Positions 19,563-56,831 of a stretch of DNA of 64,000 nt are shown here, one piece after another; positions within the stretch are counted from its first letter, which is position 1, and each line of letters starts with the position of its first letter. A program made the position numbers and the translations under genes. Below the pieces are notes generated by a model, which made no database searches, was not told the DNA's origin, and was given only the letters and a program-made list of their open reading frames with translations. Source of the DNA: Candidatus Collierbacteria bacterium (lineage in GTDB: Bacteria; Patescibacteriota; Microgenomatia; UBA1400; JACPES01); the NCBI GenBank assembly GCA_016219325.1, contig JACRNH010000024.1, positions 1,789 to 65,788 of the forward strand, read 5' to 3'.

Positions 19563-19566
19563 AGAA

Positions 19567-22999: not shown

Positions 23000-23821
23000 C
23001 TAATCTCTCTTACTTATTTTTATAAACCTTTTCCTTCCAAATTGATCTTTTATGATTTTTGCCCTGAAGTTTTTCGGAAGTTCCAAATCTTTAATTCTAT
23101 GTGTCTCGTCAATCTCCAAAAGTAAAACACCTTTAGATTTTAGCCTTGCCTGCGATTGAGCAATTAATTTATTGATCAATTTTAACCCATCCGGCCTGCC
23201 GTCGAGAGCTAAACGCGGTTCAAAATCTTTAACGGACTTCGGTAGTTTTGAAATTCTGGCAGAGGGAATATATGGAAGGTTGGCAATAATTAGATCAAAC
23301 CTTAAGTCTTTTGGGTAGCTATCAAACAAATCGCTTTCTAACCACACTAGCCACAAAAGGCCAGGCCTTTTTAAAAAGGCCTGGCCTTTTGTGGCTCTTA
23401 TGAGTCTTGAAATGTTTTCTTCCGCCACTTTCAACGCTTCTTCGGAAATATCAGACATATATATAGTAGGTTGAATTTCTAATTTAACTAATTCCAGATA
23501 TAGAGTAATCCCAATGCATCCGCATCCAGTTCCAAGGTCGGCGATGATTGGGGAGTAAGGAGTAGAAAGTAAAGAGCAAGAGCTAAGAATTTTTATGGCT
23601 TCGTCAATGAGCTGTTCGGTCTCAATCCGCGGGATTAAAACGTGTTTATTAACCTTAAAATCCCGACCGTAAAACTCCGCCCATCCGGTAATATATTCCA
23701 CCGGCATTTCACCATACTTTTTTAATTGTGAAGTTTGTCCTGCTAAGCAGGATCCTGCTCCGCAGGACGAAACTTTCCATTTCGCTAGCCAATTTATCTC
23801 CCTAGGGGAAAATTGCCTCAT
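23000..23821 (-). CDS. prmC: Release-factor glutamine N5-methyltransferase (HemK/PrmC)
   Basis: DLGTGCGCIGITL (motif I) and IIANLPY (the NPPY variant) are present. It carries a 15-aa in-frame insertion encoded by a perfect 44-nt palindrome. Confidence 0.85.
   Translation of the reverse strand: MRQFSPREINWLAKWKVSSCGAGSCLAGQTSQLKKYGEMPVEYITGWAEFYGRDFKVNKHVLIPRIETEQLIDEAIKILSSCSLLSTPYSPIIADLGTGCGCIGITLYLELVKLEIQPTIYMSDISEEALKVAEENISRLIRATKGQAFLKRPGLLWLVWLESDLFDSYPKDLRFDLIIANLPYIPSARISKLPKSVKDFEPRLALDGRPDGLKLINKLIAQSQARLKSKGVLLLEIDETHRIKDLELPKNFRAKIIKDQFGRKRFIKISKRD
23351..23394. repeat. Family-B palindromic element inserted in frame in prmC
   Basis: ccacaaaaggccaggcctttttaaaaaggcctggccttttgtgg (a perfect palindrome) encodes ..KGQAFLKRPGLLW... 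Confidence 0.85.
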
Positions 23822-24607: not shown

Positions 24608-24695
24608 TTGTCATTCCGAGCGATCCGCCAACCGGCGGAGAGCGTGGGAATCTCTTGTCAGATTGCCACGTCACTACGTTTCTCGCAATGACAAC
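24608..24695. repeat. Composite family-A-like nested palindrome
   Basis: ttgtcattccgagcg...gggaatctcttgtcagattgccacgtcactacgtttctcgcaatgacaa. The ORF-track start of the next gene runs through it. Confidence 0.6.
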
Positions 24696-26103: not shown

Positions 26104-26982
26104 ATTCTAGTCACAGGCTCTTCCGGTTTTGCCGGCCGCCATTTAACCAAGTATCTTCAGGTCAAAGGCCATACTGCCTTGATTCCGGAAATTGATTTAT
26201 TAAATGCCACCGAAACGGAAGTAGTCATTTCAAAGCAAAAATTCGATGCGGTTGTCCATTTGGCGGCAATGGCTGAAGTCGGAACAAGCATGATTTCTCC
26301 GGCTAAAATTCTGCGGAATAATATTTTCGCCCAATTGAATTTATTGGAAGCCCTAAGACGGAGAAATTCTAAAGCTAGAGTTTTAATAATCTGTAGCGCC
26401 GACGAATATGGCGGAAGTCAGGAAGGGTCCATTGATGAAAATGCTCAGTTTATGCCGGCCAGTCCTTACGCTGTTTCCAAGATAGCCCAGGATTTTTTAG
26501 GTCTGCAATATTTTTTATCTTACGGATTAAACATTATCCGGTTAAGGCCGTTTAATCACATCGGCGAAGGTCAGCGGATTGGTTTCGTGGTCCCGGATTT
26601 TGTTAAGCAGATCGTGGAGATAGAGAAAAGCGGTCAATCAGGCGAAATAATAGTCGGCAATTTAGAGGCTGTCCGCGACTTTACCGATGTTCTTGATATG
26701 GTTTCGGCTTATGAATTGGCTTTGATAAAAGGCCAGGCAGGTGAAGTTTATAACGTTGGTTCCGGCAAGGGGGTTAAAATTTCTTATTTATTAAACCAGC
26801 TTGTCAAAATGTCTAAGGCTAAAATAAAAATTACGGTTGATGAATCAAGATTTCGTCCCGGGGAACCTTCGCAACTAATATGTAATTCGGAGAAATTTAT
26901 GAAAGCCACCGGCTGGAAACCTGAAATCCCTTTGGAAAAAACTTTAGAAAGAGTGCTAGAATGGTGGAGGAAGACTAGGTAA
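26098..26982 (+). CDS. NAD-dependent epimerase/dehydratase (SDR), likely GDP-4-keto-6-deoxy-D-mannose reductase (Rmd-like)
   Basis: VTGSSGFAGRHL is a Rossmann motif and YAVSK is the catalytic YxxxK. It sits adjacent to gmd. Confidence 0.55.
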   Translation: MNILVTGSSGFAGRHLTKYLQVKGHTALIPEIDLLNATETEVVISKQKFDAVVHLAAMAEVGTSMISPAKILRNNIFAQLNLLEALRRRNSKARVLIICSADEYGGSQEGSIDENAQFMPASPYAVSKIAQDFLGLQYFLSYGLNIIRLRPFNHIGEGQRIGFVVPDFVKQIVEIEKSGQSGEIIVGNLEAVRDFTDVLDMVSAYELALIKGQAGEVYNVGSGKGVKISYLLNQLVKMSKAKIKITVDESRFRPGEPSQLICNSEKFMKATGWKPEIPLEKTLERVLEWWRKTR

Positions 26983-27057
26983 GAAAATAATGAGTAAGAA
27001 GTAATGAGTAATGAATTTTTTGATCATTATTTCTTACTTTCTACTCATTACTCATTA
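26981..27057. repeat. Family-D 'GTAATGA' palindrome at a cistron junction
   Basis: aatgagtaagaagtaatgagtaatgaa ... tcattatttcttactttctactcattactcatta. It supplies the stop of the upstream gene and a spurious N-terminal extension of gmd. Confidence 0.8.
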
Positions 27058-28089
27058 ATGTCACGAAAAGCATTTATCACCGGCATTACCGGCCAGGACG
27101 GAAGTTATTTAGCGGAATTTCTTTTGGATAAGGGTTATGAAGTTTATGGCTTGATCCGCCGGACTTCAACGGTATCAACTGAACGAGTCTCTCATCTTTT
27201 GCATAAAATTTCAGTAGTCGACGGCGACTTAACCGATCAGCATTCGTTAACGCAGGCCATCCGCGACGTCCAGCCGGATGAAATTTATAATTTGGCGGCT
27301 CAATCTTTTGTTCCGACTTCGTTTAAGCAGCCGGTTTTAACCAGCGAAGCTACGGCTTTAGGGGTTACCAGAATGTTGGAGGCTATTCGCATCGCCAAGC
27401 CGGATACTAAATTTTATCAGGCGAGTTCTTCGGAAATGTTCGGTAAAGCGGTTGAAGTTCCGCAGTCGGAAACAACTCCATTTTATCCCCGTAGTCCTTA
27501 TGGTGTAGCCAAGGTCTACGGTCATTGGATCACGGTTAATTACCGGGAGTCATATAATCTTTTTGCCTGTTCAGGGATACTTTTTAATCATGAATCACCC
27601 CGCCGCGGTTTGACTTTTATTACCCGTAAAATCTCCATGAGCGTGGCTTGTCTGGCTACGGATTTGAAATGGGTGCCTCAAAATGAGATTGGCGAACCTT
27701 TAGTCGGACAGGATAAAAAAATCGCCATTGGCAATCTTGAATCTAAACGCGATTGGGGATTTGCCGGAGATTATGTTGAGGCGATGTGGTTGATGCTGCA
27801 GCAGTTAAAACCGGATGATTTTGTGATCGGAACAGGGGAAACCCATTCTGTCAGAGATTTTCTGGAGGCGGCTTTTGAGGTAGTTCAAATTAAAGATTGG
27901 GAAAAGCATATTAAAGTTGACAAGCGCTTTTACCGTCCGGCTGAAGTAGATCTATTGATTGCCGATCCTTCCAAGGCAAACCGGAAACTAAATTGGAAGC
28001 CAAAAACAAGTTTTAAGGATTTAGTAAAAATGATGGTGGAATATGATATAAAATTTGTGAAAAGGCAAATCGAAGGTAATCAAAAATGA
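27004..28089 (+). CDS. gmd: GDP-mannose 4,6-dehydratase
   Basis: [32 protein letters not shown] is near-canonical Gmd. The true start is probably the internal ATG at about 27058 (MSRKAF...). Confidence 0.9.
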
Positions 28090-32221: not shown

Positions 32222-33239
<1,018 letters not shown>

Positions 33240-36303: not shown

Positions 36304-37583
36304 TAACAGCGCTTTTTTTTCTGTTAGCTGCGCTAATTAAGAATTTTACTCAAATTCCGGCCTCTCTTTTTGAGTCGGATCAGGAGACTTTGACAATTGC
36401 CGCCAAGAATATTCTAGGCGGACATTTTAGCCTGATTGGCGCTCCGACCAGCGTCGGGGGAATGTTTATCGCGCCTTTATATAATTATTTTGTCGCCATT
36501 TGGTTATGGATTTTCCGCGGCAGCCCTTATACGGTATCAATTTTAGGAGCAATATGGCTGTCGTTATTGATTCCGGCTATTTATCTGGTAGGAAAAAAAA
36601 TCTATTCTGGGTCAGTAGGAGTTTTCGCGGCGATTATTGCTCTATTGAGCATAAACTTTGTTAACTTTGATCAGGTTCCGCCATTATTATTTCCCCTGCC
36701 CCTGCTTACCGTAATTTTAATTTATGTTTTGGAAACTGAGCCGGCCACTAAATTCAGGAAAGCCATTATCGGCGCGGTCATAGGATTAACTTTAAATCTT
36801 CATTTTTCCGGAGTGTTTTTAGCCCCCTTACTGCTGATTTCCGGAATTTGGGGAAGTTTGGCATTGTTGATTTTGGTTTCGCCGTTAATTTTGTTTGATA
36901 TCCGCCATCAGTGGTGGAACATAGGTCACGCGGTGGAATTTTTAAGTAAAAGCGGAGCGGTAACTTCCCTGTGGTTTCGCCTGGATACTTTTCTGGTATC
37001 GTTCGCGGTTATTTTCGAAGCCGCAGCCGGAGCTGGAATGTTGGTAAAAACCGCGATGGGAGCTGTAATCGTTTGGGGATTTCTGTTCACAAGCCGCAAT
37101 TGGCCAAAAGTAATTTTGGGATTAACGTTTATCTTTTTCATGATTTATGGCGGGAGTCTTATTCCTTATTATGGAATCATTTCCTGGGTGCCGTTTATTT
37201 TGATTGCCGGATGCGGTTTGGAGAGACTGTGGGCGAAAGGGAATTTTATTAAATCAATAATTGTTTTGACGGGAGTGTTTTTCTTAATAATGAATTTTAA
37301 GGCCTTAAGTAACCGTTCGGCGAGTAGGGGGTTGGACAAAAAAATTGCCGCCCTGGAGTTTATTAAAAATGATTTTATAGGCCGGGAAATGTATCTTTCA
37401 ATAAATATGGATCCGGCGGCAAACTTCGGATTTACATATTTAACCGGATATGTTGGGATTAAATCCACTCCGTTTCCGGTTAAGCCTACTTATACTTTGC
37501 TTGCTCCTTACGATTGGTTGAAAGTTAATCCTGATAAGTCGTTTGGGGATTTCGGGGTGTTGATGTCTAGAAGTAATGAGTAA
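36300..37583 (+). CDS. Polytopic membrane protein, GT-C-like (paralog family 2)
   Basis: LIGAPTSVGGMFIAPLYNYFVAIWLW. Confidence 0.5.
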   Translation: MITALFFLLAALIKNFTQIPASLFESDQETLTIAAKNILGGHFSLIGAPTSVGGMFIAPLYNYFVAIWLWIFRGSPYTVSILGAIWLSLLIPAIYLVGKKIYSGSVGVFAAIIALLSINFVNFDQVPPLLFPLPLLTVILIYVLETEPATKFRKAIIGAVIGLTLNLHFSGVFLAPLLLISGIWGSLALLILVSPLILFDIRHQWWNIGHAVEFLSKSGAVTSLWFRLDTFLVSFAVIFEAAAGAGMLVKTAMGAVIVWGFLFTSRNWPKVILGLTFIFFMIYGGSLIPYYGIISWVPFILIAGCGLERLWAKGNFIKSIIVLTGVFFLIMNFKALSNRSASRGLDKKIAALEFIKNDFIGREMYLSINMDPAANFGFTYLTGYVGIKSTPFPVKPTYTLLAPYDWLKVNPDKSFGDFGVLMSRSNE

Positions 37584-37651
37584 TGAGTAGAAAGTAATGA
37601 GTAATGAATCGTAGGGTTCATTATTTATTACTTTCTATTTTCTACTCATTG
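37570..37651. repeat. Family-D 'GTAATGA' palindrome at a cistron junction
   Basis: agaagtaatgagtaatgagtagaaagtaatgagtaatgaa...ttcattatttattactttctattttctactcatt. Confidence 0.8.
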
Positions 37652-39118
37652 TTTATGAAATCGGATAAAACAATGAACTTTCTGACTATAGCTTTTATAA
37701 CCTTTATATCCTTTATCCTGTTTTTTTTCCGGTTGGGGAACACGGCATTAACCAATTGGGACGAGGCCTGGTTTGGCTCGGTAGCCCAGAATATGGCGGA
37801 ATCCGGAAACATTTTGGCCGGCAAGTGGAATGGGCAAATCTTTTTTTATGAACCGCCGCTTTTGGTTTGGTTGTTGAAGGCAACGATTAAACTTTTCGGC
37901 GAAAGCGAATTTTGGTTGAGGTCTGTTAGCGCCATTTCCGGGGTTTTTACAGTCATAGGATGTTATATTCTGGCCAAACAAATCTCTAAGTCAAAACTGG
38001 CGGGGATATTAGCAAGTTTAGTAATTTTGTCTGACATAGAAATTCTATTTCGGAGCCGGCAAATTAATGTTGAAATTCTTCTGACTGTTTTACTGCTGTG
38101 GTCAATTATATTCGCGGTTAAAGCCTATGAAGCAAAAAAAATCATCTGGATAATATCGTCAGCAATTTGTTTGGGTCTGGCATTTTTAACTAAACGGGCA
38201 AGTCCGTTATTAGCTCTTCCGGCAATAGGCTATTTATTCTTTTCGTCATTGACCCGTGAAGCGGGATCCCGCTCTGCGGGACGAGTCCCTTTGTTTATAT
38301 TCTTTATAACATTTACAATAGTTATTTCTCCTTGGTATTTATTAAGTTATTTAAAATGGGGAGACCAATTTATCAATGAATTTTTTATCGGATACACATT
38401 TAATAAAATTAAATCAGTCAATGCCAGTGTCGGAACTTCGCCATTTTTCTATTTAAATTCCCTTAAACACGCTTTTAAACTCTGGACTTTGTTAATTCCG
38501 CTGGCAGCAGTTTGGGGTACGTTAAAAGCTTTTCGTGACCGTAAGATTGCCGGATTGATGATTTTTATTTTAACCTTTCTGATACTCTTGACCGCCGCCC
38601 CGATAAAATCTTCCTGGTTCTTGCTCCCCATCCATCCGATAATTGCCGTAATCTTGGGAATATTCTTGTACAGCTGTCTGAAAAGGCCCGGCCTTGCATC
38701 GCAAGGCCGGGCCTTATTAAACAAATATCTCGTTTTTGCGGGATTATCTTTAATATTCGTTATCGCAACTTATCAACTTTATCACTATCGTCGCGACTAT
38801 ATTGTTCCTGACACTACAAATAATCAGGCCGTGATTTCGAGATTGGCAGGGTCGCTTTCAGAAAACGGAAAGTCAATTTATCTGGATGATGAGTATCTGC
38901 CGGTCGCGGTTTTTTATAGCCGTAAGAACGTTATTCCGTTAAGGTTTAGCCGGACCGAAAATCGGATTCCTAGTTTGGTTGATATCCCCGAAGGAAGTCT
39001 TGTATTGACTAATCTTGGAACATATCCGGTTTTAAAATCAGCTACGGGAATTATTTTTGAGGATATGTTCGCTGTCGGAGACATGTTGTTGGTCAGGTCT
39101 TTGGGCATAAGAATTTAA
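37604..39118 (+). CDS. ArnT-family (GT83-like) glycosyltransferase
   Basis: The 'NWDEAWFGSVAQNM' DE motif is present. The true start is probably an internal ATG (37655 or 37673). It carries family-B and family-C insertions. Confidence 0.6.
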   Translation: MNRRVHYLLLSIFYSLFMKSDKTMNFLTIAFITFISFILFFFRLGNTALTNWDEAWFGSVAQNMAESGNILAGKWNGQIFFYEPPLLVWLLKATIKLFGESEFWLRSVSAISGVFTVIGCYILAKQISKSKLAGILASLVILSDIEILFRSRQINVEILLTVLLLWSIIFAVKAYEAKKIIWIISSAICLGLAFLTKRASPLLALPAIGYLFFSSLTREAGSRSAGRVPLFIFFITFTIVISPWYLLSYLKWGDQFINEFFIGYTFNKIKSVNASVGTSPFFYLNSLKHAFKLWTLLIPLAAVWGTLKAFRDRKIAGLMIFILTFLILLTAAPIKSSWFLLPIHPIIAVILGIFLYSCLKRPGLASQGRALLNKYLVFAGLSLIFVIATYQLYHYRRDYIVPDTTNNQAVISRLAGSLSENGKSIYLDDEYLPVAVFYSRKNVIPLRFSRTENRIPSLVDIPEGSLVLTNLGTYPVLKSATGIIFEDMFAVGDMLLVRSLGIRI

Positions 39119-40282
39119 AATCATAAATAAGACGGCAGTAGTTAAAAAATGGCTGGATAGAAGCGGATTAAGACGTAACGGGAGATAAGAGTCTTTGAAA
39201 TAAAAGATAAGCAGAAAATAAGCCAATCCGGAAATTGCCAAATCCAGCATTTTTTTAGTTTTAATCAATTTTGCGACTAGAATTACCCAAAGAGGAATTA
39301 GAAAGACGTAATGGTGTTGCCACACAAACACCGGTAAAAATAACATTGTTATTACAGTTAAATTCCAAAAAGAGATAAAATCTTTTATTCCTTTTGTCAC
39401 TCCTGTCATTCCGGGCTTGACCCGGAATCTATACAAATAATCATTTAAAAAGAAGACCCCCAGGATCCCGCTAATCCCCAATCTTGTTATCGAATTCAAT
39501 TCCCCAAAAATTCCGAATTTCCCCAATAAGGCCGTAACCGATTGATTCATATAGCTTCCATTGAGAGTGGTACGAGTATTTTCGTTCATTAATTGCGGAA
39601 TGGTTTTAAAATAATAATAATAGGTTAAATCCCAACCGAATACGGAAATTCCGGCTATGGTTAATATTCCAATCGTAACCATAAACCACCAAACTGTTCT
39701 CCATCTTTTTCTAAATAAGAAATAAATTAGCAATGGGGCTGGCGTTAATTTTAAAATAGCCGCTAGCCCAAATAATATCCCTGATAAAGCCTCAAAAGGC
39801 CGGACCTTGCTTCGCAAAGTCCGGCCTTTATAAATTTCACAAAAATAATAACTTCCCACGATCAATCCTAAAATAATTAAATTAATTTGTCCCAGCGCCA
39901 GAGTTAATTTAGATGGGTAAGTCTTTAGAGCTAAAACAAAAATTAACCAAAAAATGGATGGGGATAATTTAATTTTTAACAATTCAAAAATCATTTTTAT
40001 GGTGAGCAGTAAGGAAAAAGCCGAAATTGCGGTAAATAAAAATTCGGCCGTATTTTCGGGAATTAAAGTCAACGGAATAAAAAATAGGGTAGCTGCGGGA
40101 GAATAATTGAATCGATCAAAAAACCTTAATTGATACGGGTTAGCCCCACTGAGAGCCGATTTAGTTCCGTCTAAATAAACACTAAAGTCGTTGAGACGGA
40201 AGTTCATGATTAATTGCCCAATGGGAATTACTTGTCTCCAAAGAATTATTGCTACAATCAAGAGTATTAATTTATTAACCAT
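39038..40282 (-). CDS. Polytopic membrane protein (GT-C-like)
   Basis: Multi-TM protein. The start was chosen at the ATG whose codon overlaps the divergent YfhO start (shared CATG at 40280-40283). It contains a family-B insertion. Confidence 0.45.
   Translation of the reverse strand: MVNKLILLIVAIILWRQVIPIGQLIMNFRLNDFSVYLDGTKSALSGANPYQLRFFDRFNYSPAATLFFIPLTLIPENTAEFLFTAISAFSLLLTIKMIFELLKIKLSPSIFWLIFVLALKTYPSKLTLALGQINLIILGLIVGSYYFCEIYKGRTLRSKVRPFEALSGILFGLAAILKLTPAPLLIYFLFRKRWRTVWWFMVTIGILTIAGISVFGWDLTYYYYFKTIPQLMNENTRTTLNGSYMNQSVTALLGKFGIFGELNSITRLGISGILGVFFLNDYLYRFRVKPGMTGVTKGIKDFISFWNLTVITMLFLPVFVWQHHYVFLIPLWVILVAKLIKTKKMLDLAISGLAYFLLIFYFKDSYLPLRLNPLLSSHFLTTAVLFMILNSYAQRPDQQHVSDSEHILKNNSRS
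39404..39439. repeat. Family-A hairpin repeat (inside the minus-strand membrane-protein gene region)
   Basis: tgtcattccGGGCTTGACCCggaatctatacaaata. Confidence 0.75.
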
Positions 40283-42488
40283 GAAATTTTTCAGCCGCTT
40301 ACCTATTCTAACCATTTTAACCATTTCAATAATTTCTTTATTTTACTTCAAACCAATTTGGAAAGACCGTTTAATTCCGTTTCCGGGGAATTTGCTGATT
40401 TCTTATTTTAGCCCATGGAAAGAAGAAAGTTGGCCGGGATATCCGACCGGAGTTCCGCGCAAAGGCTTATTGGGATTTGATACGGTCCGGATGATGGGCC
40501 CATGGCGAAATTTTATTACCAAAGAACTCAAGTCGAGTCGTTTCCCATCCTGGAATCCGCATCAGTTTGGAGGCACGCCGATGTCAGCCAATTACCAGTC
40601 AGCTCTTTTTTTTCCTCCCAATTTAATTTATCTTATCCTGCCTTTTTACGTCGCTTGGACGATTTTAATCATCTCTCAACCAATCCTCGCTGCGACCGGA
40701 ATGTATTTGTTGCTTAAAGCATTATTTAATGTTTCTCTATCAACGCATCAACGCATTAACGCATTAACTATTACGTTTCTTTCTTTTATGTACGGTTTCT
40801 CCGCCTGGATGTCAGTTTGGATTGAGTGGAATATTCACGGTTTTGTCTATGCGTTACTTCCGTTCGGGCTGCTTTTTATCCATAAAAGAAAAACTATCTT
40901 AACCATCTTAACTATTTCATTTATTATCTTTGCCGGTCACCCCCAAATGGCCCTGATCGGAATTTCGGCTTTGGCAATATTCGTCATGATTGGGAAAAAG
41001 TTTAAATGGTTTATAACAGTTATGTCAGTTGTTTTGTTGATTACTTCAGTCCAATGGTTCCCGTCTTTGAAATACTACCAACAAGCTAGCCGCGAAAAAC
41101 AATCAAGCGAATTTGTGTACGAAAATACTCTTTTGCCATGGAAACAGTTGTCTCAATTGATCGTCCCTAATTTTTTCGGAAATCCGGCCACGGGTAATTT
41201 TTCCGGTAAACTGGATTTTTTGGAATCCACGGCATATTCAGGAATAGCGATATTAGGGCTTGCGATGATTGGATTGTTGGCAAAAAACAAAAAATCCCGC
41301 GGAGCGGGATCCCGCTCTGCGGGACAAGAAACAAGAAACTTTGCGATTATTCTCTTAGTGTTGATTTCGGTTTTGGTCCTCCCGAACCCAATTTCGCTCT
41401 TGATCGGTAAACTTAATATTCCGATTTTGTCGACTTCTGTTGCCAGCCGTTGGCTGATGCTTTTGCCTCTGGGGCTAACATTGCTTGCTGCTGTTGGTAT
41501 CACCGAATTTTTTTCAAATAAAGCCTGGCCTCGCGAAGCAAGGCCAGGCCTTTATACGCCATCAATACTTCTGATTTCAATTATCGGTCTCTGGATATAC
41601 GCTTTATTTTTTCCCCCGGAATTCCGTTCTGTTTCATTCAGAAATTTGATAATCCCCACCGTTATTGCCGGATTGTTTTTCTTAACATTTTTATTCAAGT
41701 TTGCCGATCGGCAGTCTGGGATGAAAGTTTTCTTATTAACTTTGTATATTTTATCTATCGGGGAGCTGATTTTATTCGGTTGGAAAACAATGCCCTATAC
41801 CGAAAAACGGTTTATTTATCCGGTAACGCCAGTTTTGGAAAAATTACAGGAGTTTTCCCGCGATGGCAGTCGTTTTGCCGCGACAGATGGCAGCGTGATT
41901 GACTCTAATTTTGCCACTTATTATGGGTTGTACGATTTATCGGGTTATGACGCCTTATACCCGAGGAAAATAGGCGAGTTGGTTTGGTCGGCCGCCAACA
42001 ATGGAAAGCCCGTCAAAGATTTTTCCAGATCAACAGTAGTAGTTCCCACAAAACAATCAGACGCCAGAAATAATCTGTGGAATTTAAGCGGTGTCCGCTG
42101 GATCATCAATAAGGATGATATGTTGGCTGAACATCCGGGTCAAAGATCCAGCGATTTGTCTTCTGATTTCGAACTTATCTGGGAAGAGGGGAAGTGGCAA
42201 ATTTATAAAAACACTAAAGTGTATTCTCGTGCATTTTTTACTACTGACATCTCCCAAATCCCCCCAATCTCCTTAATCACCCCGGCTGAAATAGTTTCCT
42301 CTCAATCAAATCTTGTAGAAATAACAGTCGATGCCCCAAGTGACGGATATCTGGTTTTAACGGATACTTTTTATCCGGGATGGAAAGCAACGGTTGACGG
42401 CAATGCTGTGGAAATTATACCGGCTTTTAGAGCTTTCAGGGCTGTTCAAGTTTTAAGGGGTAGCCATGCTGTAAGATTTAATTTATGA
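40281..42488 (+). CDS. YfhO-family membrane protein (GT-C-type glycosyltransferase)
   Basis: FPGNLLISYFSPWKEESWPG...WNPHQFGGTPMSANYQSALFFPPN is the YfhO N-terminal pattern. Start at MKFFSRLP. It carries family-B and family-C insertions. Confidence 0.65.
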   Translation: MKFFSRLPILTILTISIISLFYFKPIWKDRLIPFPGNLLISYFSPWKEESWPGYPTGVPRKGLLGFDTVRMMGPWRNFITKELKSSRFPSWNPHQFGGTPMSANYQSALFFPPNLIYLILPFYVAWTILIISQPILAATGMYLLLKALFNVSLSTHQRINALTITFLSFMYGFSAWMSVWIEWNIHGFVYALLPFGLLFIHKRKTILTILTISFIIFAGHPQMALIGISALAIFVMIGKKFKWFITVMSVVLLITSVQWFPSLKYYQQASREKQSSEFVYENTLLPWKQLSQLIVPNFFGNPATGNFSGKLDFLESTAYSGIAILGLAMIGLLAKNKKSRGAGSRSAGQETRNFAIILLVLISVLVLPNPISLLIGKLNIPILSTSVASRWLMLLPLGLTLLAAVGITEFFSNKAWPREARPGLYTPSILLISIIGLWIYALFFPPEFRSVSFRNLIIPTVIAGLFFLTFLFKFADRQSGMKVFLLTLYILSIGELILFGWKTMPYTEKRFIYPVTPVLEKLQEFSRDGSRFAATDGSVIDSNFATYYGLYDLSGYDALYPRKIGELVWSAANNGKPVKDFSRSTVVVPTKQSDARNNLWNLSGVRWIINKDDMLAEHPGQRSSDLSSDFELIWEEGKWQIYKNTKVYSRAFFTTDISQIPPISLITPAEIVSSQSNLVEITVDAPSDGYLVLTDTFYPGWKATVDGNAVEIIPAFRAFRAVQVLRGSHAVRFNL

Positions 42489-43183
42489 AAATTTCAATTA
42501 TTATTCCGGTATTTAACGAAGAAAAAACAATCGCCAAAATCATCAGACAGATTAATAATGTAATCGGATTCCGGAAAGAAATTATAGTTGTTGATGATGC
42601 TTCGGTTGATGGAACATCTGGAGTTATAAAAGATATCCTTCGACTTCGCTCAGGACAAGTAAAGGATATAACTGTTATTAAACATAAAATTAATCAGGGC
42701 AAGGGCGCTGCGATTAGAACCGGAATTGCTAAAGCTACCGGCGATTATGTTTTGGTTCAGGATGCTGATTTGGAATACGATCCGCAGGATATTTTATCAA
42801 TGATCAAACCTATTAGCCAGGGGAAAGCGGAGGTCGTCTACGGTTCGCGGTTTACAGGACCGAGACGGAATATGTTTTTTTGGCATTGGATGGGAAATCA
42901 ATTATTGACACTTATAACCAATATTCTTTACAACACAACACTTTCAGATATGGAAACTTGTTATAAATTAATTCCCTTAAGATTAATTAAGTCTTTAAAT
43001 TTGAAAGCTCAAAGGTTTGAATTTGAACCTGAAGTAACCGCTAAAATTTTAAAAAGAAATATCAGAATTTGGGAAGTTCCGATTTCTTACGCCGGACGCG
43101 AATATCATGAGGGCAAAAAAATTACCTGGAAAGACGGGATACCGGCCCTGTGGACATTGATAAAGGAACGGATAACTCCGTAA
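42485..43183 (+). CDS. Polyprenol-phosphate glycosyltransferase (GT2, DPM1-like)
   Basis: ISIIIPVFNEEKTI...VVDDASVDGT. Confidence 0.8.
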   Translation: MKISIIIPVFNEEKTIAKIIRQINNVIGFRKEIIVVDDASVDGTSGVIKDILRLRSGQVKDITVIKHKINQGKGAAIRTGIAKATGDYVLVQDADLEYDPQDILSMIKPISQGKAEVVYGSRFTGPRRNMFFWHWMGNQLLTLITNILYNTTLSDMETCYKLIPLRLIKSLNLKAQRFEFEPEVTAKILKRNIRIWEVPISYAGREYHEGKKITWKDGIPALWTLIKERITP

Positions 43184-43275
43184 TGAGTAAGAAGTAAGGA
43201 GTAATGAGTAATGAAAAGCACAAAAATAAATATCCAATCATTATTTTCTACTCATTATTTCTTACTCATTATTTT
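43180..43275. repeat. Family-D 'GTAATGA' palindrome at a cistron junction
   Basis: gtaatgagtaagaagtaaggagtaatgagtaatgaa...tcattattttctactcattatttcttactcattatt. Confidence 0.8.
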
Positions 43276-44623
43276 TTCTTTTCCCCTCCTCTTCAACCTC
43301 TTCCGTCCCGGCTTCTATTCTTCCGACGACGGCCAATGGATGGCAATCAGATTAACCGCCTTCCATGAGTCTTTCCGTTCAGGTCAAATTCCGGTCAGAT
43401 GGATGTCCAGATTGAATCATGAGTACGGTTATCCGGTGACAAACTTTTTATACCCATTGCCATTTTACTTGGCGGAACCTTTTTACGTTTTATCCGGAGA
43501 TCCGGTATTGGCTATTAAAATCATTATGGGCTTGTCTGTGATCAGCATGGCTTTTGGATCATTTGTCTTATTTAAAAGATGGGGAACGATTGCCGGAGCC
43601 GCCGGAGCTTTAGCTTATGTTTATTCTCCGTATATCGCTTACAATCTTTATACCCGCGGTTCATTGGGAGAATTGGCGGCCTTAGGAATTGTGCCGTGGA
43701 TCTTTTGGGCGCTTTCCCATAACCGATTTCTTTTATCGTCTATTTTTATCGCTGGTTTGATTACTGCTCATAATGTAGTCGCCGCGGTCTTTTTGCCCCT
43801 TATAGTCTTTTATAATATTTATAACAATTATCCTGCGAAGCAGGACCCTGCTCTGCGGGGTAAAAATTATAAAATACAAGCGGTATCTTCATTAATTTTG
43901 GCCTTAGTTTTAAGTTCCTTCTTCTGGCTTCCTGCTCTCTATGAATACCGTTTTGTCAGAGCTTCTCAAATTTCAGTCTCAGATTTCGGCAACGAATATC
44001 TCTCTTTGCAAAAAGCATTTCAGCGGACTGGTCCGGTTTCAGTTTTAGCCAATTTTGGATTACCGTTATTTTTTCTAACGGAGAATTCCAAATGGTTTTG
44101 GGACTTATTTAAGCCTTTGCAGATAATCCAATTCCCGTGGCGGTTTTTAAGCCTATTCGCCTTTTCCTCTTCAACGGTCGTAGCATTATTGATTTATGTA
44201 TCAAGAAAAAATAGGTTTACGCAGTATAGCTTTATAACCTTTATAATCTTTATTTCTGCTTCCTCTTTTTTATCCCCCAAGTCTTTTATCGATCTCCCTC
44301 CAAGTTACTATCAAACCAACGATGATAGCACCACAGTCAGAAGCGAATACACTCCGGTTTGGGTAAAAAATTTACCCCTTAACCGTTCTGAATTTCCGGT
44401 TAAACATTTTTATCCGGGATTAAAGCTGTTTGTTAATGGGATTGAACAACCGGCAAATTTAAATTCAGATAACGGAGAATTAAAGCCTTTAGATTCAAGA
44501 GATAATAACAGGATTAAATTTATTTGGAGTGAAGCGCCCTTGAGAGTGATAGCGGATCTGATATCGGTTACAGGACTACTTACTGTCCTGTTTTTGTTTA
44601 AGCGACAACAGTATAAATATTAA
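43211..44623 (+). CDS. Polytopic membrane protein, 'FPVRW' paralog family (copy 1)
   Basis: GQIPVRWMSRLNHEYGYPVTNFLYPL. It carries a family-C insertion (AKQDPALRGK). Confidence 0.55.
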   Translation: MKSTKINIQSLFSTHYFLLIIFSFPLLFNLFRPGFYSSDDGQWMAIRLTAFHESFRSGQIPVRWMSRLNHEYGYPVTNFLYPLPFYLAEPFYVLSGDPVLAIKIIMGLSVISMAFGSFVLFKRWGTIAGAAGALAYVYSPYIAYNLYTRGSLGELAALGIVPWIFWALSHNRFLLSSIFIAGLITAHNVVAAVFLPLIVFYNIYNNYPAKQDPALRGKNYKIQAVSSLILALVLSSFFWLPALYEYRFVRASQISVSDFGNEYLSLQKAFQRTGPVSVLANFGLPLFFLTENSKWFWDLFKPLQIIQFPWRFLSLFAFSSSTVVALLIYVSRKNRFTQYSFITFIIFISASSFLSPKSFIDLPPSYYQTNDDSTTVRSEYTPVWVKNLPLNRSEFPVKHFYPGLKLFVNGIEQPANLNSDNGELKPLDSRDNNRIKFIWSEAPLRVIADLISVTGLLTVLFLFKRQQYKY

Positions 44624-46264: not shown

Positions 46265-47792
46265 TCTTTTATTGAGTATACCAGCGGTTTGGCCGATAGT
46301 CGCCCCCGGATTTTTTCCGGTTCATGATGACGCGCAGGCCGCCAGGGTTCAGCAAATGTATGTGGCTTTACGGGGCGGGCAGTTTCCGGTCAGATGGGTG
46401 CCTGATTTGGGATACGGGTATGGATATCCGATTTTTAATTTCTATAATCCCCTGCCATATTATTTCGGAGCCGGTTTTATGTTTATTGGATTTAATGTTT
46501 TAACGGCTACGAAGTTAATGTATGTTTTTCCGGTTTTTTTATCCGGGATAACAATGTTTATTTTTTCAAGACTTGTATTGTCTAACGCTGCTTCCGCCTT
46601 GGCCGGGATTCTTTATGTCTATGCTCCATATCACGCGGTCCAAATTTATGTCAGGGGATCGGTAGCCGAGTATTGGGCTTACGCCATACTGCCTTTGGTT
46701 TTTTATGCTCTTTGGAAAAGAAAAATTATTATCGGTTCTTTGTCATTGGCGGCTTTGATTCTATCTCACAATTTAACCGCGTTTATGTCAATCCCTTTTG
46801 TAGTATTGTTATTCTTCATCTCTTTTCGTCATTGCGAGGAGCGTAGCGACGCGGCAATCTCAAAATCAAAGACGGAATTGCCATATTCTCTTTTGATATT
46901 TGTAGTGACTATTGCGTTAGGGATTGGTCTTAGTGTTTTTTTCTGGCTGCCGGCAACCATAGAAATTGGTAAAACTCAAGTATCGCAAATGGTATTTGAA
47001 AAATTTGACCCGCCTTCAAAACATGTGGCTTATCCGCTGCAGCTCTGGTCTGGCGTTTGGGGCTATGGCGGATCTTCGCCGGGCATTGACGATGGATTAT
47101 CTTTTCAAGTTGGGAAAATCCACTTAATTGGTAGTTTGACCGCATTTTTAATATATCTAGGATATATTCTTAAAAAGATAACCAATCATTCCAGTCTTTT
47201 TAGCCTTTCTAACCTTTTTAACCATTTTAACCATTTAATCTTCTTTTCCATCGTCGGCCTCGTCTTTTCTATTTTCATGCTACTGCCGCCGTCCCGACCA
47301 ATTTGGGATGCGTTTCCGGTTCTTTCTTATATCCAATTTCCGTGGCGTTTCCTGACATTCGCCTCTCTATTTAGTTCTTTATTAACAGCTTGGGCTATAG
47401 ATGCGTTCGCAATTCGCAATTCGCGACCCGTAATCCGTTATTCACTACTTACTGCTTACTGCTTACTGCTTACTGCTTACTCCCTCCCTTTTTTCCAGCC
47501 CAAATTTAAATTTCCCATTACGGTTGATCAGCTAATCTCCCGCGAAAAATTAATCTGGGATTATTCTAAAATTTCCGACGAGTATTTGCCGAAAGGCTTT
47601 GCTCCGCCTGTAAACGCCGAAGTCGCTTTAAGAATTGACAATCAGCAAAATAAATTGTTGGTTGACGAGCTAAAAGCGCTAACGCCTGTTAGGCAAACGG
47701 CAAATTTAATAAGTTTATTTTCAGTTTTAACTTTTATAACCTTTATAATTGTCATTTCAATAAAAAAACATGGACAAAATATTTCAGGTTAA
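46230..47792 (+). CDS. Polytopic membrane protein, 'FPVRW' paralog family (copy 3)
   Basis: GQFPVRWVPDLGYGYGYPIFNFYNPL. It contains an in-frame family-A insertion (SFRHCEERSDAAISKSK) and a CTTACTG heptamer array. Confidence 0.55.
   Translation: MAKRLILFILFILLLSIPAVWPIVAPGFFPVHDDAQAARVQQMYVALRGGQFPVRWVPDLGYGYGYPIFNFYNPLPYYFGAGFMFIGFNVLTATKLMYVFPVFLSGITMFIFSRLVLSNAASALAGILYVYAPYHAVQIYVRGSVAEYWAYAILPLVFYALWKRKIIIGSLSLAALILSHNLTAFMSIPFVVLLFFISFRHCEERSDAAISKSKTELPYSLLIFVVTIALGIGLSVFFWLPATIEIGKTQVSQMVFEKFDPPSKHVAYPLQLWSGVWGYGGSSPGIDDGLSFQVGKIHLIGSLTAFLIYLGYILKKITNHSSLFSLSNLFNHFNHLIFFSIVGLVFSIFMLLPPSRPIWDAFPVLSYIQFPWRFLTFASLFSSLLTAWAIDAFAIRNSRPVIRYSLLTAYCLLLTAYSLPFFQPKFKFPITVDQLISREKLIWDYSKISDEYLPKGFAPPVNAEVALRIDNQQNKLLVDELKALTPVRQTANLISLFSVLTFITFIIVISIKKHGQNISG
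46827..46860. repeat. Family-A variant inserted in frame inside a CDS
   Basis: cgtcattgcgaggagcgtagcgacgcggcaatct. Confidence 0.75.
47444..47482. repeat. Heptanucleotide tandem array (CTTACTG)x5 inside a CDS
   Basis: cttactgcttactgcttactgcttactgcttactc encodes LLTAYCLLLTAY. A (GCAATTC) x2-3 array also lies at 47405-47425. Confidence 0.8.
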
Positions 47793-49239
47793 GCAAAAAA
47801 CAGTTAAAGGGTTGATAGCTTTGACCGTCAGGACGGGCTTATTGCAAGTGATAGCAGTTGTTGCCACTTTTGTTTTGACGGTATTTCTGGATCCGGCCCA
47901 GTTCGGAGTTTTCGCGATAGTTGCCGCCGCTGTGGATATTTTGGTGTATTTTTCTGATATTGGATTAGCCGGAGCTTTGATCCAAAAACAGGAGGTAAAT
48001 GATGAAGACCTAGCGACAACATTTACGATTCAGCAAACATTAAGTTTAGTTTTGTTAGGGATTGGGTTTATAGCCGGCAGTTTGGTTGCCAATATTTATT
48101 CTCTGTCTGCCGCCGGCATTTGGTTATTTAGGGCATTATTGATTTCGGTTTTTTTATCAGGTTTAAAAACTATCCCCAGCGTTTTATTGGAAAGAAAACT
48201 GGACTTTGTCAAAGTAGCCACAGTCCAAATAATCGAAACCGTAATTTTTTACGGGTTAGCGGTGATTTTGGCCTGGAGAGGTTTTGGGATTAGCAGTTTT
48301 ACCGCTGCGGTATTAGTAAGGAGTTTAATCGGGCTGATAATGATTTATCTTTTGGCGCCATGGAAGCCTAAAATAGGGTTCAACAAAGTATCTTTCAAAA
48401 AATTAGCATCTTTCGGAATGCCGTTTCAGCTCAATAGTCTTTTAGGATTAGTTAAAGACAGAATGCTCGTCGCTTATTATGGGGCAATCCTATCTCCTTC
48501 TAATGTAGGATATTTGCAGTGGGCGGAAAGGTGGTCATTGTTTCCGTTAAGGATGGTGGTAGACAATGTGTCTAAAGTCACGTTTCCGGCCTATTCCAGA
48601 CTGCAGGAGGAACGTGATCATTTAGCTAAAGCGATTGAAAAGTCTATTTTCTTTACCGCGCTGTTTATCTTTCCGATTTTAATCGGATTATTGGTTTTTG
48701 CCCCGGTCGCTTTAATGGTGATTCCAAGATATCAAAAATGGCAGCCGGCGCTTTTAGCGCTGGGCCTATTTTCAATTAATGCCATGTGGTCTTCGGTTTC
48801 AACCACAATAACAAACGCCTTCGCGGCTATGGGAAAGATTAAAATTAATCTTAAATTGATGTTAATGTGGACGGCGTTGACATGGATTTTGACTCCGTTG
48901 CTGATGTCAAAATACGGTTACAACGGTGTTGCTTTGGCTTCGGCCATAGTTGCTTCGTCTTCAATAATCCCTATGATAATCCTTCAGAAAATGTTGCCGG
49001 TAAAATTGCTATCTAACATCTGGCCGCAGTTAGTCAGCGCCCTAACAATGGGGTTAGTAATCCGTTACGTTAATCTAAATTTACCATTTACTATTTACTA
49101 TTTACTATTTACCGTTCTCCTCGGTGCTATACTTTATGGAGCTTTTCTGATGATGTTAATTCCTAAAAAGGTGGTTGCGGAAATAAGGTCTGTCAAAAAG
49201 ATGTTGCGTCATTCCGGACTTGATCCGGAATCTATATAG
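47770..49239 (+). CDS. Wzx-like oligosaccharide/polysaccharide flippase (MOP superfamily)
   Basis: It is about 490 aa with 12 or more TM segments and the polysaccharide-biosynthesis-protein pattern. The C-terminus is supplied by a family-A repeat. It also contains a TTTACTA x4 array. Confidence 0.65.
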   Translation: MDKIFQVKQKTVKGLIALTVRTGLLQVIAVVATFVLTVFLDPAQFGVFAIVAAAVDILVYFSDIGLAGALIQKQEVNDEDLATTFTIQQTLSLVLLGIGFIAGSLVANIYSLSAAGIWLFRALLISVFLSGLKTIPSVLLERKLDFVKVATVQIIETVIFYGLAVILAWRGFGISSFTAAVLVRSLIGLIMIYLLAPWKPKIGFNKVSFKKLASFGMPFQLNSLLGLVKDRMLVAYYGAILSPSNVGYLQWAERWSLFPLRMVVDNVSKVTFPAYSRLQEERDHLAKAIEKSIFFTALFIFPILIGLLVFAPVALMVIPRYQKWQPALLALGLFSINAMWSSVSTTITNAFAAMGKIKINLKLMLMWTALTWILTPLLMSKYGYNGVALASAIVASSSIIPMIILQKMLPVKLLSNIWPQLVSALTMGLVIRYVNLNLPFTIYYLLFTVLLGAILYGAFLMMLIPKKVVAEIRSVKKMLRHSGLDPESI

Positions 49240-49243
49240 ATAA
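49207..49243. repeat. Family-A hairpin repeat (forms the 3' end of the flippase gene)
   Basis: cgtcattccGGACTTGATCCggaatctatatagataa. Confidence 0.8.
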
Positions 49244-49250
49244 TTTTTCT

Positions 49251-50198
49251 ATGAAACAAGCACTTTCTGTAGTTTTTTCTGTCCACAACGAAGAAAAGCT
49301 GATCGAGGAAGCCCTGAAATCAGTCAGCCGGATAGCGGATGAAATTATTGTTGTAGATAATGAATCAACTGATAAAACAATTCAAATAGCTAAAAAGTAC
49401 ACAAAAAATATCTATGTACACAAAAATACCCCAAATTCTTTGAATACTCCTAAAAATTACGGTTTTTCCAAAGCGAAAGGTGATTGGATTTTGTCTTTGG
49501 ACGCCGACGAGCGCGTTTCCCCCGATCTTGCAGAGGAAATTATGGGAAGTTTGCGAAACTTCCCACAATCAACTGGCGTTTCGCAAACTTCTGTTAACGG
49601 GTATTGGATGCCGAGAAAAAATATTGTTTTTGGTAAGTGGATACAGCACGGGATTTGGTATCCGGATAAACAGTTGAGATTATTCCGTCGCGGGAAAGGT
49701 AAATTTCCGGAGAAACATAATCATGAATATTTAGAAGTAACTGATGGATTGGGTGAATTAAAAAATCATTTGATCCATCAAAACTATCAAACAATAGTCC
49801 AGTTTGTGGATAAAATGAATCATGCGTATACGGATAATGAGGCAGAGGTTTTGCTGGCTTCCGGTAAAAAATTAGAATGGCTTGACGCTATCAGAATGCC
49901 TGTTTCTGATTTCATTCTTAACTTTTTCCGCCGCCAGTCGTATAAAGATGGGCTTCACGGTTTGATCTTATCTTCACTTCAGGCTTTTTATGCTCTTCTG
50001 GTATTTGCAAAAGCATGGGAGCGGCAGGGGTTTTGGGAATACGACTCAAAAGATTTTGCCCGTGATGTCAAGATTGAGTTAAAAAATAAGGGGCAAGAAT
50101 TTTCCTGGTGGTACACTAAAGAAATTATTCCTTGGTTTTTAAAACCAAAACAAATTGCGAAGAAACTAATTAATCAAATAAGGCCTGGCCTTGCCTAG
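49251..50198 (+). CDS. Family-2 glycosyltransferase
   Basis: LSVVFSVHNEEKLI...VVDNESTDKT and the DAD motif are present. The stop lies inside a family-B palindrome. Confidence 0.75.
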   Translation: MKQALSVVFSVHNEEKLIEEALKSVSRIADEIIVVDNESTDKTIQIAKKYTKNIYVHKNTPNSLNTPKNYGFSKAKGDWILSLDADERVSPDLAEEIMGSLRNFPQSTGVSQTSVNGYWMPRKNIVFGKWIQHGIWYPDKQLRLFRRGKGKFPEKHNHEYLEVTDGLGELKNHLIHQNYQTIVQFVDKMNHAYTDNEAEVLLASGKKLEWLDAIRMPVSDFILNFFRRQSYKDGLHGLILSSLQAFYALLVFAKAWERQGFWEYDSKDFARDVKIELKNKGQEFSWWYTKEIIPWFLKPKQIAKKLINQIRPGLA

Positions 50199-50214
50199 CA
50201 AGGCCAGGCCTTTA
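50180..50214. repeat. Family-B palindromic element
   Basis: aaggcctggccttgcctagcaaggccaggccttta. Confidence 0.85.
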
Positions 50215-50235
50215 TAAACACATTTAAACACATTT

Positions 50236-55906: not shown

Positions 55907-56831
55907 CGGTAAATTACTGCTGGAAAAAAATTTGCCGGCGGTTATATATTCCTTGAGGCGTCTGGAAAGGCCTGGCCCTGCGAAGCAGGGCCAGGCCTTT
56001 ATTGATTCCGAAATAATAGTTGTGGACGATGCTTCTTCGGATAGCACAGAAAAATGGTTAACGGCAGAATATCCGGAAGTAAAGTTAATAAAAAATAAAA
56101 ACAATTTGCGTTTTGCTCGTTCATGTAACCGCGGGGTAAATGCTGCCAAGGGAGAGATTGTGGTTTTATTAAATAATGATGTCAGTCCCAGTCCTGACTT
56201 TTTGTCTTATGTGATCCCGCATTTTGGAGACGAAAAAGTATTCGCGGTCGGCTTCGGAGAAATAAACTCGGTTGACGGAAAAATTATTCACGGAGGAAGA
56301 GGTGTATCCAAATTTGAGCGGGGACTGGTTATGCATTGGCGCCCAATAGACCAAAAAAGTCCGGTGGTAACATGGCTTTCCGGCGGCAGTATGGCTTTCA
56401 ACAAAAGTATTTGGGAAAGGCTGGGGGGATTTGATGAGTTATTTAGACCGGCTTATGAGGAAGACCGGGATTTATGTTGGCAGGCTTTAAAATCAGGCTA
56501 TAAAATAGTTTTTGAGCAGAAAGCTGTTGTTGAACATTTTCACGAATCCACTAATTTAAAATTATTCGGAAAGACAAAAATATCTATGTACTCGTTAAAA
56601 AATCAGCTTCTTTTTGTTTGGAAAAATATATCTTCTCCAAAATACTTGTTGAGCCATTTAATTTGGTTTCCGTATCATTTAATTTTAACTACAATAAGGA
56701 CTAAGGGAATATTTTTGGCAGCATTTTGCTGGGCTTTGACGCAGTTGCCGGAGACTTTGATATCCAGAAAAAGCGCTTCAAAACTTTGGAGAATAGATGA
56801 TGAAGAAATTTTTAAATTGGCTGAAAAATAA
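55860..56831 (+). CDS. Family-2 glycosyltransferase
   Basis: ISIVIPSYNGK...VVDDASSDST and LLNNDV are present. It contains a family-B insertion (ERPGPAKQGQAF). Confidence 0.75.
   Translation: MIQMLNSISIVIPSYNGKLLLEKNLPAVIYSLRRLERPGPAKQGQAFIDSEIIVVDDASSDSTEKWLTAEYPEVKLIKNKNNLRFARSCNRGVNAAKGEIVVLLNNDVSPSPDFLSYVIPHFGDEKVFAVGFGEINSVDGKIIHGGRGVSKFERGLVMHWRPIDQKSPVVTWLSGGSMAFNKSIWERLGGFDELFRPAYEEDRDLCWQALKSGYKIVFEQKAVVEHFHESTNLKLFGKTKISMYSLKNQLLFVWKNISSPKYLLSHLIWFPYHLILTTIRTKGIFLAAFCWALTQLPETLISRKSASKLWRIDDEEIFKLAEK

Follow-up and report, generated by a model that had tools for sequence, protein, structure and literature searches.

The stretch of Candidatus Collierbacteria DNA analysed here, 64,000 nucleotides (nt) in total and referred to below as the window, contains four copies of a palindromic element, designated family B, each in a different open reading frame (ORF). 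Family B probably represents a new family of short, non-autonomous palindromic repeats of the kind of repetitive extragenic palindromic (REP) sequences and Rickettsia palindromic elements (RPEs), which is kept where an additional in-frame loop is tolerated. Comparison with relatives showed that it enters the DNA as a discrete block of 30 nt without target-site duplication. Three of the copies had been described in an earlier note as palindromic inserts in paralogous membrane glycosyltransferases; the sequences quoted there lie at the positions given, and the peptides read as quoted, all in frame. All three are real copies, but a fourth one, in the gene for the release-factor glutamine methyltransferase PrmC, had been missed, and the unit proved to be 30 nt long (Table 1).

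The unit of family B is a near-perfect palindrome, T-CCYGC-NNN-GCRGG-AT-CCYGC-NNN-GCRGG-A, in which a 28-nt core with GGATCC at its centre is capped by T and A. It consists of two 13-nt mini-hairpins in tandem (CCYGC-NNN-GCRGG) with AT between them as a 2-nt spacer, and is written beside its target as TTG^TCCCGCGGAGCGGGATCCCGCTCTGCGGGA^C. By chance, 0 copies would be expected in 64 kb. The 22-mer GCGGGATCCCGCTCTGCGGGAC occurs exactly twice in the window, at 38261-38282 and 41304-41325 (0 expected from 100 shuffles), and the half-unit CCYGCNNNGCRGG was found 9 times against 0.12 expected; a repeat grouping (family D12) brought together positions 23739-23771, 38253-38285, 41296-41328 and 43832-43864. 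All four copies keep the reading frame of their host. Copy 1 is flanked by CATTG on the 5' and CGAG on the 3' side. Copy 2 comprises exactly ten codons, with K before and Q after them, and TTG abuts it on the minus strand. Copy 3 is translated in another frame than copies 1 and 2, and copy 4 lies between AAGTTTG (23731-23737) and CGAAACTT (23768-23775), the two arms of a palindrome older than the copy itself.

Table 1. Family B copies in the window, their host genes, and a GC-rich insert in a further gene (positions refer to the window).
Feature	Position	Strand	Description
Family B copy 1	38252-38281	+	In frame in ORF 37604-39118; peptide (T)REAGSRSAG(R)
Family B copy 2	41295-41324	-	Best kept copy; peptide SRGAGSRSAG in ORF 40281-42488
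Family B copy 3	43831-43860		Degenerate (GACC centre); peptide PAKQDPALRG in ORF 43211-44623
Family B copy 4	23738-23767	+	Peptide SCGAGSCLAG near the N-terminus; minus-strand ORF 23000-23821
Host gene 1	37604-39118	+	GT-C glycosyltransferase, Pfam PMT_2/PMT, ArnT-like fold
Host gene 2	40281-42488	+	YfhO-like polytopic membrane protein; orthologs carry PF09586 YfhO
Host gene 3	43211-44623	+	PTPS_related membrane protein (Pfam)
Host gene 4	23000-23821	-	Release-factor glutamine methyltransferase PrmC/HemK, soluble
GC-rich insert	57161-57189	+	ORF 56797-58380, peptide SSRRAESLGGA; outside family B

Folded as RNA, copy 2 reaches -27.9 kcal/mol (z = -7.25 against shuffles), and z-scores of -5.0 and of -5.4 to -6.1 were obtained for copies 3 and 4, respectively. 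The minimum free energy fold of the best copy is a single long hairpin of 13 bp, but this was rejected as the selected structure, as covariation favours two mini-hairpins. Where C/T and G/A vary, the changes are coupled inside the single 13-nt unit in 7 of 7 discriminating copies, and Watson-Crick pairs amount to 24 of 28 within units versus 10 of 28 between units. The loops of the two units were fully complementary in 17 of the 104 copies among the matches listed from other genomes, with 8 expected. Since the covariation resides inside the units and the loops are rarely complementary, the constrained structure is the pair of mini-hairpins, i.e. a dimer. No frame of the conserved stems includes a stop codon, and a stop can arise only via the loop triplets.

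Syntenic relatives were represented by loci L119 and L121-L126, and orthologs with 66-76% identity lack the inserts. The loop of ORF 37604 that receives copy 1 is empty and short in L119, L121 and L123 and carries family B also in L125. In L126, P0006 and P0007, another palindrome (family D, peptide SLRAPxKSGRGNL) occupies the site, and in L124 family B is nested within family D (GTCATTG^30 nt^CGAG); comparison of the DNA of L124 and L126 gave an exact insertion of 30 nt and no duplication. ORF 40281 has ten more codons, located between K and Q, than its counterpart in L123, where the site is empty, and ORF 43211 carries a nine-codon insert that four orthologs do not have. In PrmC, the DNA of L127 differs from that of L128 by an insertion of exactly 30 nt at GAAGTTTA^CGAAACTTCC (GTTTG^CGAAAC), in the centre of a 21-nt palindrome and again without duplication. 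The divergence between orthologous copies keeps pace with that of their genes.

The PrmC copies translate either as SxCGAGSxxAG (window, P0132, P0134) or as PAKQDPAxQG (P0130, P0135). Because one DNA sequence is read in two frames among PrmC orthologs, and both strands are used, the conserved entity is the DNA and not the peptide. A conserved protein motif was rejected on these grounds and in view of the orthologs without insert. We also examined whether the segments belong to a conserved domain, the finding that the earlier note had named as speaking against inserts; they do not lie in one and are missing from orthologs, and the description as palindromic in-frame DNA inserts stands.

Searching a collection of species-representative genomes with the pattern CCYGCNNNGCRGGATCCYGCNNNGCRGG detected the 28-nt core in at least 117 genome stretches, most of them labelled as Patescibacteria of many classes. 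The labels among the matches listed comprise Microgenomates, Collier-, Roizman-, Gottesman-, Doudna-, Magasanik-, Kuenen-, Komeili-, Kerfeld- and Staskawiczbacteria, Paceibacterota and Saccharibacteria and, by record label alone, metagenome-assembled genomes (MAGs) of Lentisphaeria, Kiritimatiellae, Ignavibacteria and Gammaproteobacteria. A few matches in genomes with approximately 60-74% G+C look like chance occurrences or different repeats. In genomes below 56% G+C, 32 copies among the matches listed reside in ORFs of at least 150 amino acids, whose products are mostly soluble and include, judged by eye from motifs, UvrA-like (L097), UvrB-like (L107) and ornithine-carbamoyltransferase-like (L004) proteins. 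The frame encoding S-R-x-A-G-S-R-x-A-G is used by 21 of these 32 copies (p = 2e-4). A search of IMG/VR with the core pattern returned 0 matches, which leaves a phage origin unsupported.

Two details of the distribution are recorded here in their own right. A Doudnabacteria MAG (L019:6089-7102) and a Saccharibacteria MAG (L109:3362-4378) contain the same protein with family B after residue 5 (MSKIM-SREAGSRFAG-KNIVIIGGGTGTS and MKKIM-SRGAGSRSAG-KNIVIIGGGTGTS, respectively); judging from the downstream sequence, the real start of this protein may lie after the element. The copies at L125:1224-1251 and L126:11825-11852, which come from different samples, have the second-unit variant CTCGC...GCGAG with compensated C-to-T and G-to-A changes in common, and their hosts differ, being an ortholog of ORF 37604 in L125 and a YfhO-like gene in L126. 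This suggests lineage-specific subfamilies or homogenisation between copies.

The sequences next to the element are strongly biased. Among the matches listed (104 copies), T precedes the core in 202 of 208 flanks, and this near-invariant T is the reason to count the element as 30 nt. A G ahead of the T (NGT) is present at exactly one end in 83 of the 104 copies and at both ends in 4, so that the element has an orientation; TGT (38) and CGT (29) are followed by GGT (13) and AGT (11). TTG abuts the 30-mer in 27 of the 58 unique copies listed, compared to an expectation of 4.4% (p = 2e-21). In the nested cases GTCATTG^CGAG and GTTTG^CGAAAC, the TTG belongs to the target. Repeatedly, the element is lodged within another small palindrome (twice, in L124 and in PrmC) or a short tandem array, and the composite AAGTTTG-element-CGAAACTT recurs in different genes, namely PrmC of the window, L124:5731, L126:11825 and L123:11041.

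In the explanation that we favour, copies would persist only where ten extra residues, encoded by 30 nt or ten codons, are harmless, and the S-R-x-A-G-S-R-x-A-G reading, which is small, flexible and basic, would be tolerated most. The copies themselves could arise by cutting and pasting of a hairpin on single-stranded DNA by a trans-acting HUH/Y1 enzyme similar to those of IS200/IS605 elements or to RAYTs (tyrosine transposases that are associated with REPs). Such a step would account for the absent duplication, the fixed 5' flank and the hairpins; by analogy with these systems we advance it tentatively, as a possibility that we rate somewhat below even chances. IS200/IS605 elements insert 3' of a short specific sequence. 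Like IS608 and ISDra2 of this group, family B has hairpin ends, is inserted 3' of TTG and causes no target duplication, but it carries no gene, has a tenth to a fiftieth of their length, and no TnpA was found in the sequence examined. Both IS200/IS605 and REP/RAYT systems use hairpins that have a short guide or target sequence on the 5' side, and hairpins and single-stranded DNA intermediates are described for the IS200/IS605 family (PMC6006769).

Canonical REPs and REP doublets forming hairpins (REPINs) carry the tetranucleotide GT[AG]G at 0-2 nt 5' of the hairpin foot, and the RAYT gene (tnpA_REP) is flanked by REPs; in-frame insertions have been reported even within tnpA_REP genes, and REPs are described as species-specific (PMC6006769). 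Family B shares with them a short conserved sequence 5' to the hairpin foot, the doublets and the 'long hairpins' with an internal bulge. It differs in that its copies are mostly intragenic and in that no RAYT was found in the 64-kb window.

The definitions of GTAG- and CGTC-tagged REPs come from Di Nocera et al. (2013; PMC3733652). The CGTC type, which takes in Rickettsia RPE-4 and RPE-6 and Neisseria dRS3, has an unpaired CGTC (or TGTC/CCTC) end, a stem of 8-9 bp opening with two A-T pairs and a loop of 4-5 nt; it forms dimers with spacers of 1-2 bp and occurs within genes, especially uvrA and uvrB, where it adds short peptides, and no dedicated transposase was found for it (PMC3733652). Both are short hairpin repeats rich in G+C. 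Similarly, 67 of the 91 NGT flanks of family B are CGT or TGT, which together with the first C of the element give CGTC or TGTC, every copy is a doublet, and the repair-gene hosts (UvrA-like, UvrB-like, by eye) recur. In contrast to CGTC-tagged REPs, the G of the tag comes from the target in the nested cases, and the core is common to phylum-level labels. As the (C/T)GTC end, the dimer and the intragenic habit agree with this type and the stem and loop do not, family B was filed as a new family of the REP/RPE kind and not within any family already defined.

RPEs are the classic example of in-frame selfish DNA in unrelated protein-coding genes (Ogata et al., 2000, via PMC10969869). PMC10969869 describes added surface peptides that are compatible with folding, a small genome, and RPE-1-type elements of approximately 100-150 bp that encode 30-50 residues. 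REPs and RPEs inside genes, uvrA and uvrB among them, have been described (PMC3733652, PMC10969869). Like RPEs, family B is found in frame within functional ORFs whose orthologs lack the insert. It differs in its size of 30 nt or 10 residues, in its occurrence in Patescibacteria and other phyla, and apparently in its sequence.

Several observations weigh against family B being a mobile repeat of the REP/RPE kind. There is no transposase or RAYT gene in the 64-kb window, and no recurrent transposase was detected among the 25 commonest families of 150 ORFs adjoining copies elsewhere. The stems of family B have 5 bp, all G+C, plus a T-A cap instead of 8-9 bp starting from AT, and its loops have 3 nt instead of the 4-5 nt of CGTC-tagged REPs, although the search pattern fixed this length at 3 nt (the window copies have it too). 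The 5' consensus is TTG-T and never GTAG, and the core extends beyond the species level, unlike that of REPs; its near-invariance across phylum-level labels could indicate a conserved binding site. Copy 1 (38253), which has a mutation in the stem, folds only marginally better than shuffled sequences (z = -1.8). Direct repeats in the flanks are enriched, with a longest common substring of 5.2 versus 3.8 that was reached in 0 of 300 permutations, and could be decayed target duplications. Finally, the assignment of the copy 1 loop to the cytoplasm, discussed below, derives from helix counting and the positive-inside rule and not from a topology predictor.

Some of these points would fit a functional cis-element, i.e. 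a protein binding site or a structured DNA or RNA signal, that is maintained by selection and copied via recombination. The 28-nt core is near-invariant over many lineages, compensatory C/T-G/A changes preserve the pairing in the mini-hairpins, and the centre is GGATCC/GATC. In addition, copy 2 (41296) resembles an intrinsic terminator, although on the antisense strand only and owing to neighbouring Lys codons, and it is the sole such copy. We nevertheless regard a cis-element as unlikely. Presence and absence alternate at the same site among close relatives, the same loop holds different palindromic families in different relatives, and the host genes are unrelated. The Rfam search of the window yielded no family for the element, only two tRNAs passing the thresholds, and intragenic binding sites normally evolve via point mutation and not by exact insertions of 30 nt.

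The enriched flanking repeats (5.2 vs 3.8, see above) could alternatively point to a minimal MITE (a miniature transposable element with inverted repeats) of the DDE type, in which two terminal inverted repeats of an insertion sequence, each of 14-15 nt, abut and a target-site duplication of 7-9 bp is generated. Examples compatible with this are ATAAGTTGT-core-ATAAGTTGT in L043 and GTTTTTTGT-core-ATTTTTTGT in L061. However, the two filled/empty pairs (L127/L128 and L124/L126) add exactly 30 nt with nothing duplicated. By inspection, the flanking repeats consist of 7-8-nt units that end in TTG and are arranged in short tandem arrays, the element being placed where two units meet. The units mostly run to 3-4 tandem repeats on both sides and look like pre-existing arrays. 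MITEs are defined by a size of 70-300 bp, terminal inverted repeats, a target-site duplication and a related autonomous insertion sequence (PMC3733652). At 30 nt, family B is well below this range, and no related insertion sequence was present among the 25 commonest families of the 150 neighbouring ORFs, so that an origin as a MITE appears quite improbable.

The earlier note had regarded the inserts as confined to paralogous GT-C genes and had proposed either targeting of an element or gene conversion among the paralogs. The confinement does not hold, since the fourth copy is located in the soluble PrmC, and the UvrA-like, UvrB-like and ornithine-carbamoyltransferase-like proteins host further copies elsewhere. 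We estimate that about 31% of the window is taken up by GT-C-like genes, and three of four copies in such genes is not significant (p ~0.09); when all palindromic families were pooled, about 9 of 14 intragenic copies were in GT-C genes according to a hand count. The apparent preference probably arises because the window is full of loop-rich membrane genes, and there is no targeting of a gene family such as glycosyltransferases. At the nucleotide level, the idea of targeting was borne out by the TTG in the 5' flank and the nesting in palindromes.

Concerning gene conversion, copies 1 and 2 have 22 identical bases, and both are in polytopic glycosyltransferase-like genes of one cluster. Each of the three membrane hosts falls into a Pfam family of its own (PMT_2, YfhO-like and PTPS_related), and BLASTP among them revealed no similarity beyond the insert itself (E = 0.008 for ORF 37604 versus ORF 40281); for these two reasons they are not close paralogs. 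The pairwise comparison that the earlier note had suggested placed the inserts at residues 218 of 504 (ORF 37604), 339 of 735 (ORF 40281) and 208 of 470 (ORF 43211), in loops for which no common alignment can be made, and the positions could not be called homologous. Moreover, the identity ends at the edges of the element, and copies are found in PrmC and in unrelated genes of other phyla. With no homology in the flanks, a copying of the segment by gene conversion among paralogous GT-C genes is practically excluded.

The products of the host genes provide an indication of where the repeat is tolerated. The AlphaFold model of ORF 37604, which is named 'glycosyltransferase family 39 protein [Candidatus Collierbacteria bacterium]' at NCBI and probably starts at M18, has a predicted local distance difference test score (pLDDT) of 86.4 and ArnT (5F15) as the best match in the PDB (TM-score 0.72). 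For ORF 40281, the list of ORFs gives a TTG start at 40191, versus the ATG at 40281 used in orthologs. Mapping of the inserts onto the membrane topology, also suggested in the earlier note, found all three inserts in the membrane proteins bordered by hydrophobic segments, and we infer that they form short loops joining transmembrane (TM) helices; in ORFs 40281 and 43211, these loops are short and rich in K/R. In the model of ORF 37604, the insert (residues 218-227) connects helix 200-217 to helix 227-252, and the pLDDT falls to 61-67 at residues 211-230. The periplasmic DE motif (residues 53-54), the periplasmic C-terminal domain and the positive-inside rule served as anchors for its topology, and the amphipathic helices 52-67 and 86-98 were counted as juxtamembrane, as in ArnT. 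In this arrangement, the insert loop is probably cytoplasmic and connects TM6 and TM7. A second loop of ORF 37604, which carries a repeat of another family (LKRPGLASQGRA, family A; residues 360-369, pLDDT 57), would likewise be cytoplasmic, between TM10 and TM11. The insert in PrmC is near the N-terminus, ahead of the region that aligns with solved HemK structures. Taken together, the retained copies appear to sit in loops, termini or linkers.

An artefact, in the form of linker or adaptor sequence or an assembly error, was considered because the core contains CGGGATCCCG, which we take to be a BamHI-linker-like decamer, but beyond this presumed resemblance to a synthetic linker nothing speaks for it and the idea can be dismissed: the copies occur in independent assemblies of many projects with variable loops, they are always in frame within long ORFs, an identical protein is present in NCBI and Logan assemblies, and orthologous copies have diverged along with their genes.

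A GC-rich insert in ORF 56797 (at about 57150-57200) had been assigned to the same group in the earlier note, with CATCCATCATCC direct repeats at its borders. This segment, 57161-57189, was rejected as a member of family B. It is unique in the window and forms no significant hairpin (z = +0.36 against shuffles), and the CATCCATCATCC repeats are present also in the ortholog P0066, which has no insert, so that they were not generated as a duplication by the insertion. In other orthologs of ORF 56797, the loop contains family A peptides (LRPGLAGQGQAF) or no insert. The insert at 57161-57189 is a separate event in an insertion-tolerant loop.

The invasion of genes by small in-frame palindromes was already known from Rickettsia and a few REP-bearing bacteria, and in the literature searched we found no paper tying REP elements to bacteria of the Candidate Phyla Radiation (CPR). 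Our analysis adds the same process in a genome of the Patescibacteria (CPR), with several palindromic families in the same loops across relatives. New are the family itself, the exact insertion of 30 nt next to TTG, the nesting in palindromes and the conservation of the core across many Patescibacteria and beyond. Odd GC-rich peptides of low complexity in CPR proteins (SRxAGSRxAG, PAKQDPA etc.) are consequently to be seen as derived from DNA elements and not as functional motifs. The inserts flag insertion-tolerant sites in membrane glycosyltransferases and can be used as strain-level markers, and the exact TTG-adjacent insertion without duplication provides a concrete substrate for seeking the enzyme that mobilises CGTC-type REPs. 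A more far-reaching version, which we consider doubtful, is that family B is an active 30-nt mobile hairpin moved in trans by a single-strand DNA enzyme among distantly related bacteria, including the ultra-small Patescibacteria. Equally speculative is the further detail that the putative enzyme might recognise the two mini-hairpins and paste them 3' of TTG, which would place family B among the smallest transposable units proposed. If true, such an active hairpin would be a tractable model for 'orphan' CGTC-type REPs and would keep supplying new loops to the proteins that streamlined genomes encode.

Besides family B, the window contains other palindromic families. Family A (AAAGGCCWGGCCTTGC-N3-4-GCAAGGCCWGGCCTTT) is present at 23349-23396, 32946-32978, 38677-38719, 39790-39832, 41514-41556, 50174-50216 and 55961-56003; most of its copies are in frame within genes and encode peptides such as KRPGLASQGRA. 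One family A copy and one family B copy occur together in each of ORF 37604, ORF 40281 and PrmC, and the centre of the family A copy at 55961 (CCTGCGAAGCAGG) is identical to the half-unit of family B. Family C, (T/C)GTC-ATTCCGGG-CTTGA-CCCGGAAT-CTATA, was found at 10850-10893, 39404-39447 and 49207-49250 (compare 15382-15415 and 24614-24650). It conforms to the definition of CGTC-tagged REPs with its tag, an 8-bp stem starting from AT and a 5-nt loop (PMC3733652), and the copy at 39404 (TGTC-ATTCCGGG-CTTGA-CCCGGAAT-C) is in frame in a GT87 gene, where it encodes RVKPGMTGV. Family D, TGTCATTGCGAG...GGCAATCTC, is located at 24655-24692 (in reverse orientation), at 46828-46865 and at L126:8529-8690; it encodes peptides of the type SLRxxxxxxGNL and fills the loop of ORF 37604 in P0003 as well as in P0006 and P0007. 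Orthologs of ORF 37604, PrmC and ORF 56797 carry differing repeat peptides (VIPGVAKRRSGI, ARNASRSEAGG, DCHVADAPRNDSN, SRARGQRRVEGSS) in the same few loops. Judging from these sequences, the remodelling of Collierbacteria proteins by palindromic elements appears to be widespread.

Four further features of the window lie outside these families. The convergent 3' ends of ORF 37604 (plus strand) and of the GT87 gene at 39038-40324 (minus strand) overlap by 81 nt (39038-39118), and the same overlap is called in the relatives L119, L121 and L123. AT-rich arrays of 7-nt units (AGTAATG/CATTACT) at 17819-17883, 26982-27062, 37575-37650, 43181-43271, 62054-62100 and 62925-62965 make up long, imperfect palindromes that lie at gene junctions and span start codons, and one of them contains a 'terminator-like' hairpin of 20 bp (37589-37636); similar arrays of 7-8-nt units ending in TTG flank family B copies in other genomes. 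The ORF at 37-2034, whose upstream limit is near the edge of the window, matches the C-terminal specificity domain of Type ISP restriction-modification enzymes and Eco57I methylase. At 19034-20200, two GC-rich arms of approximately 100 nt, complementary to 98% over 66 nt (19066-19131 and 20099-20164), enclose 967 nt of AT-rich DNA with two small minus-strand ORFs (19221-19562 and 19567-19845) that have no Pfam match. This region adjoins a GIY-YIG gene (20242-20514) and genes for tRNA-Glu and tRNA-Gln, and it resembles an inserted cassette bounded by long terminal inverted repeats.

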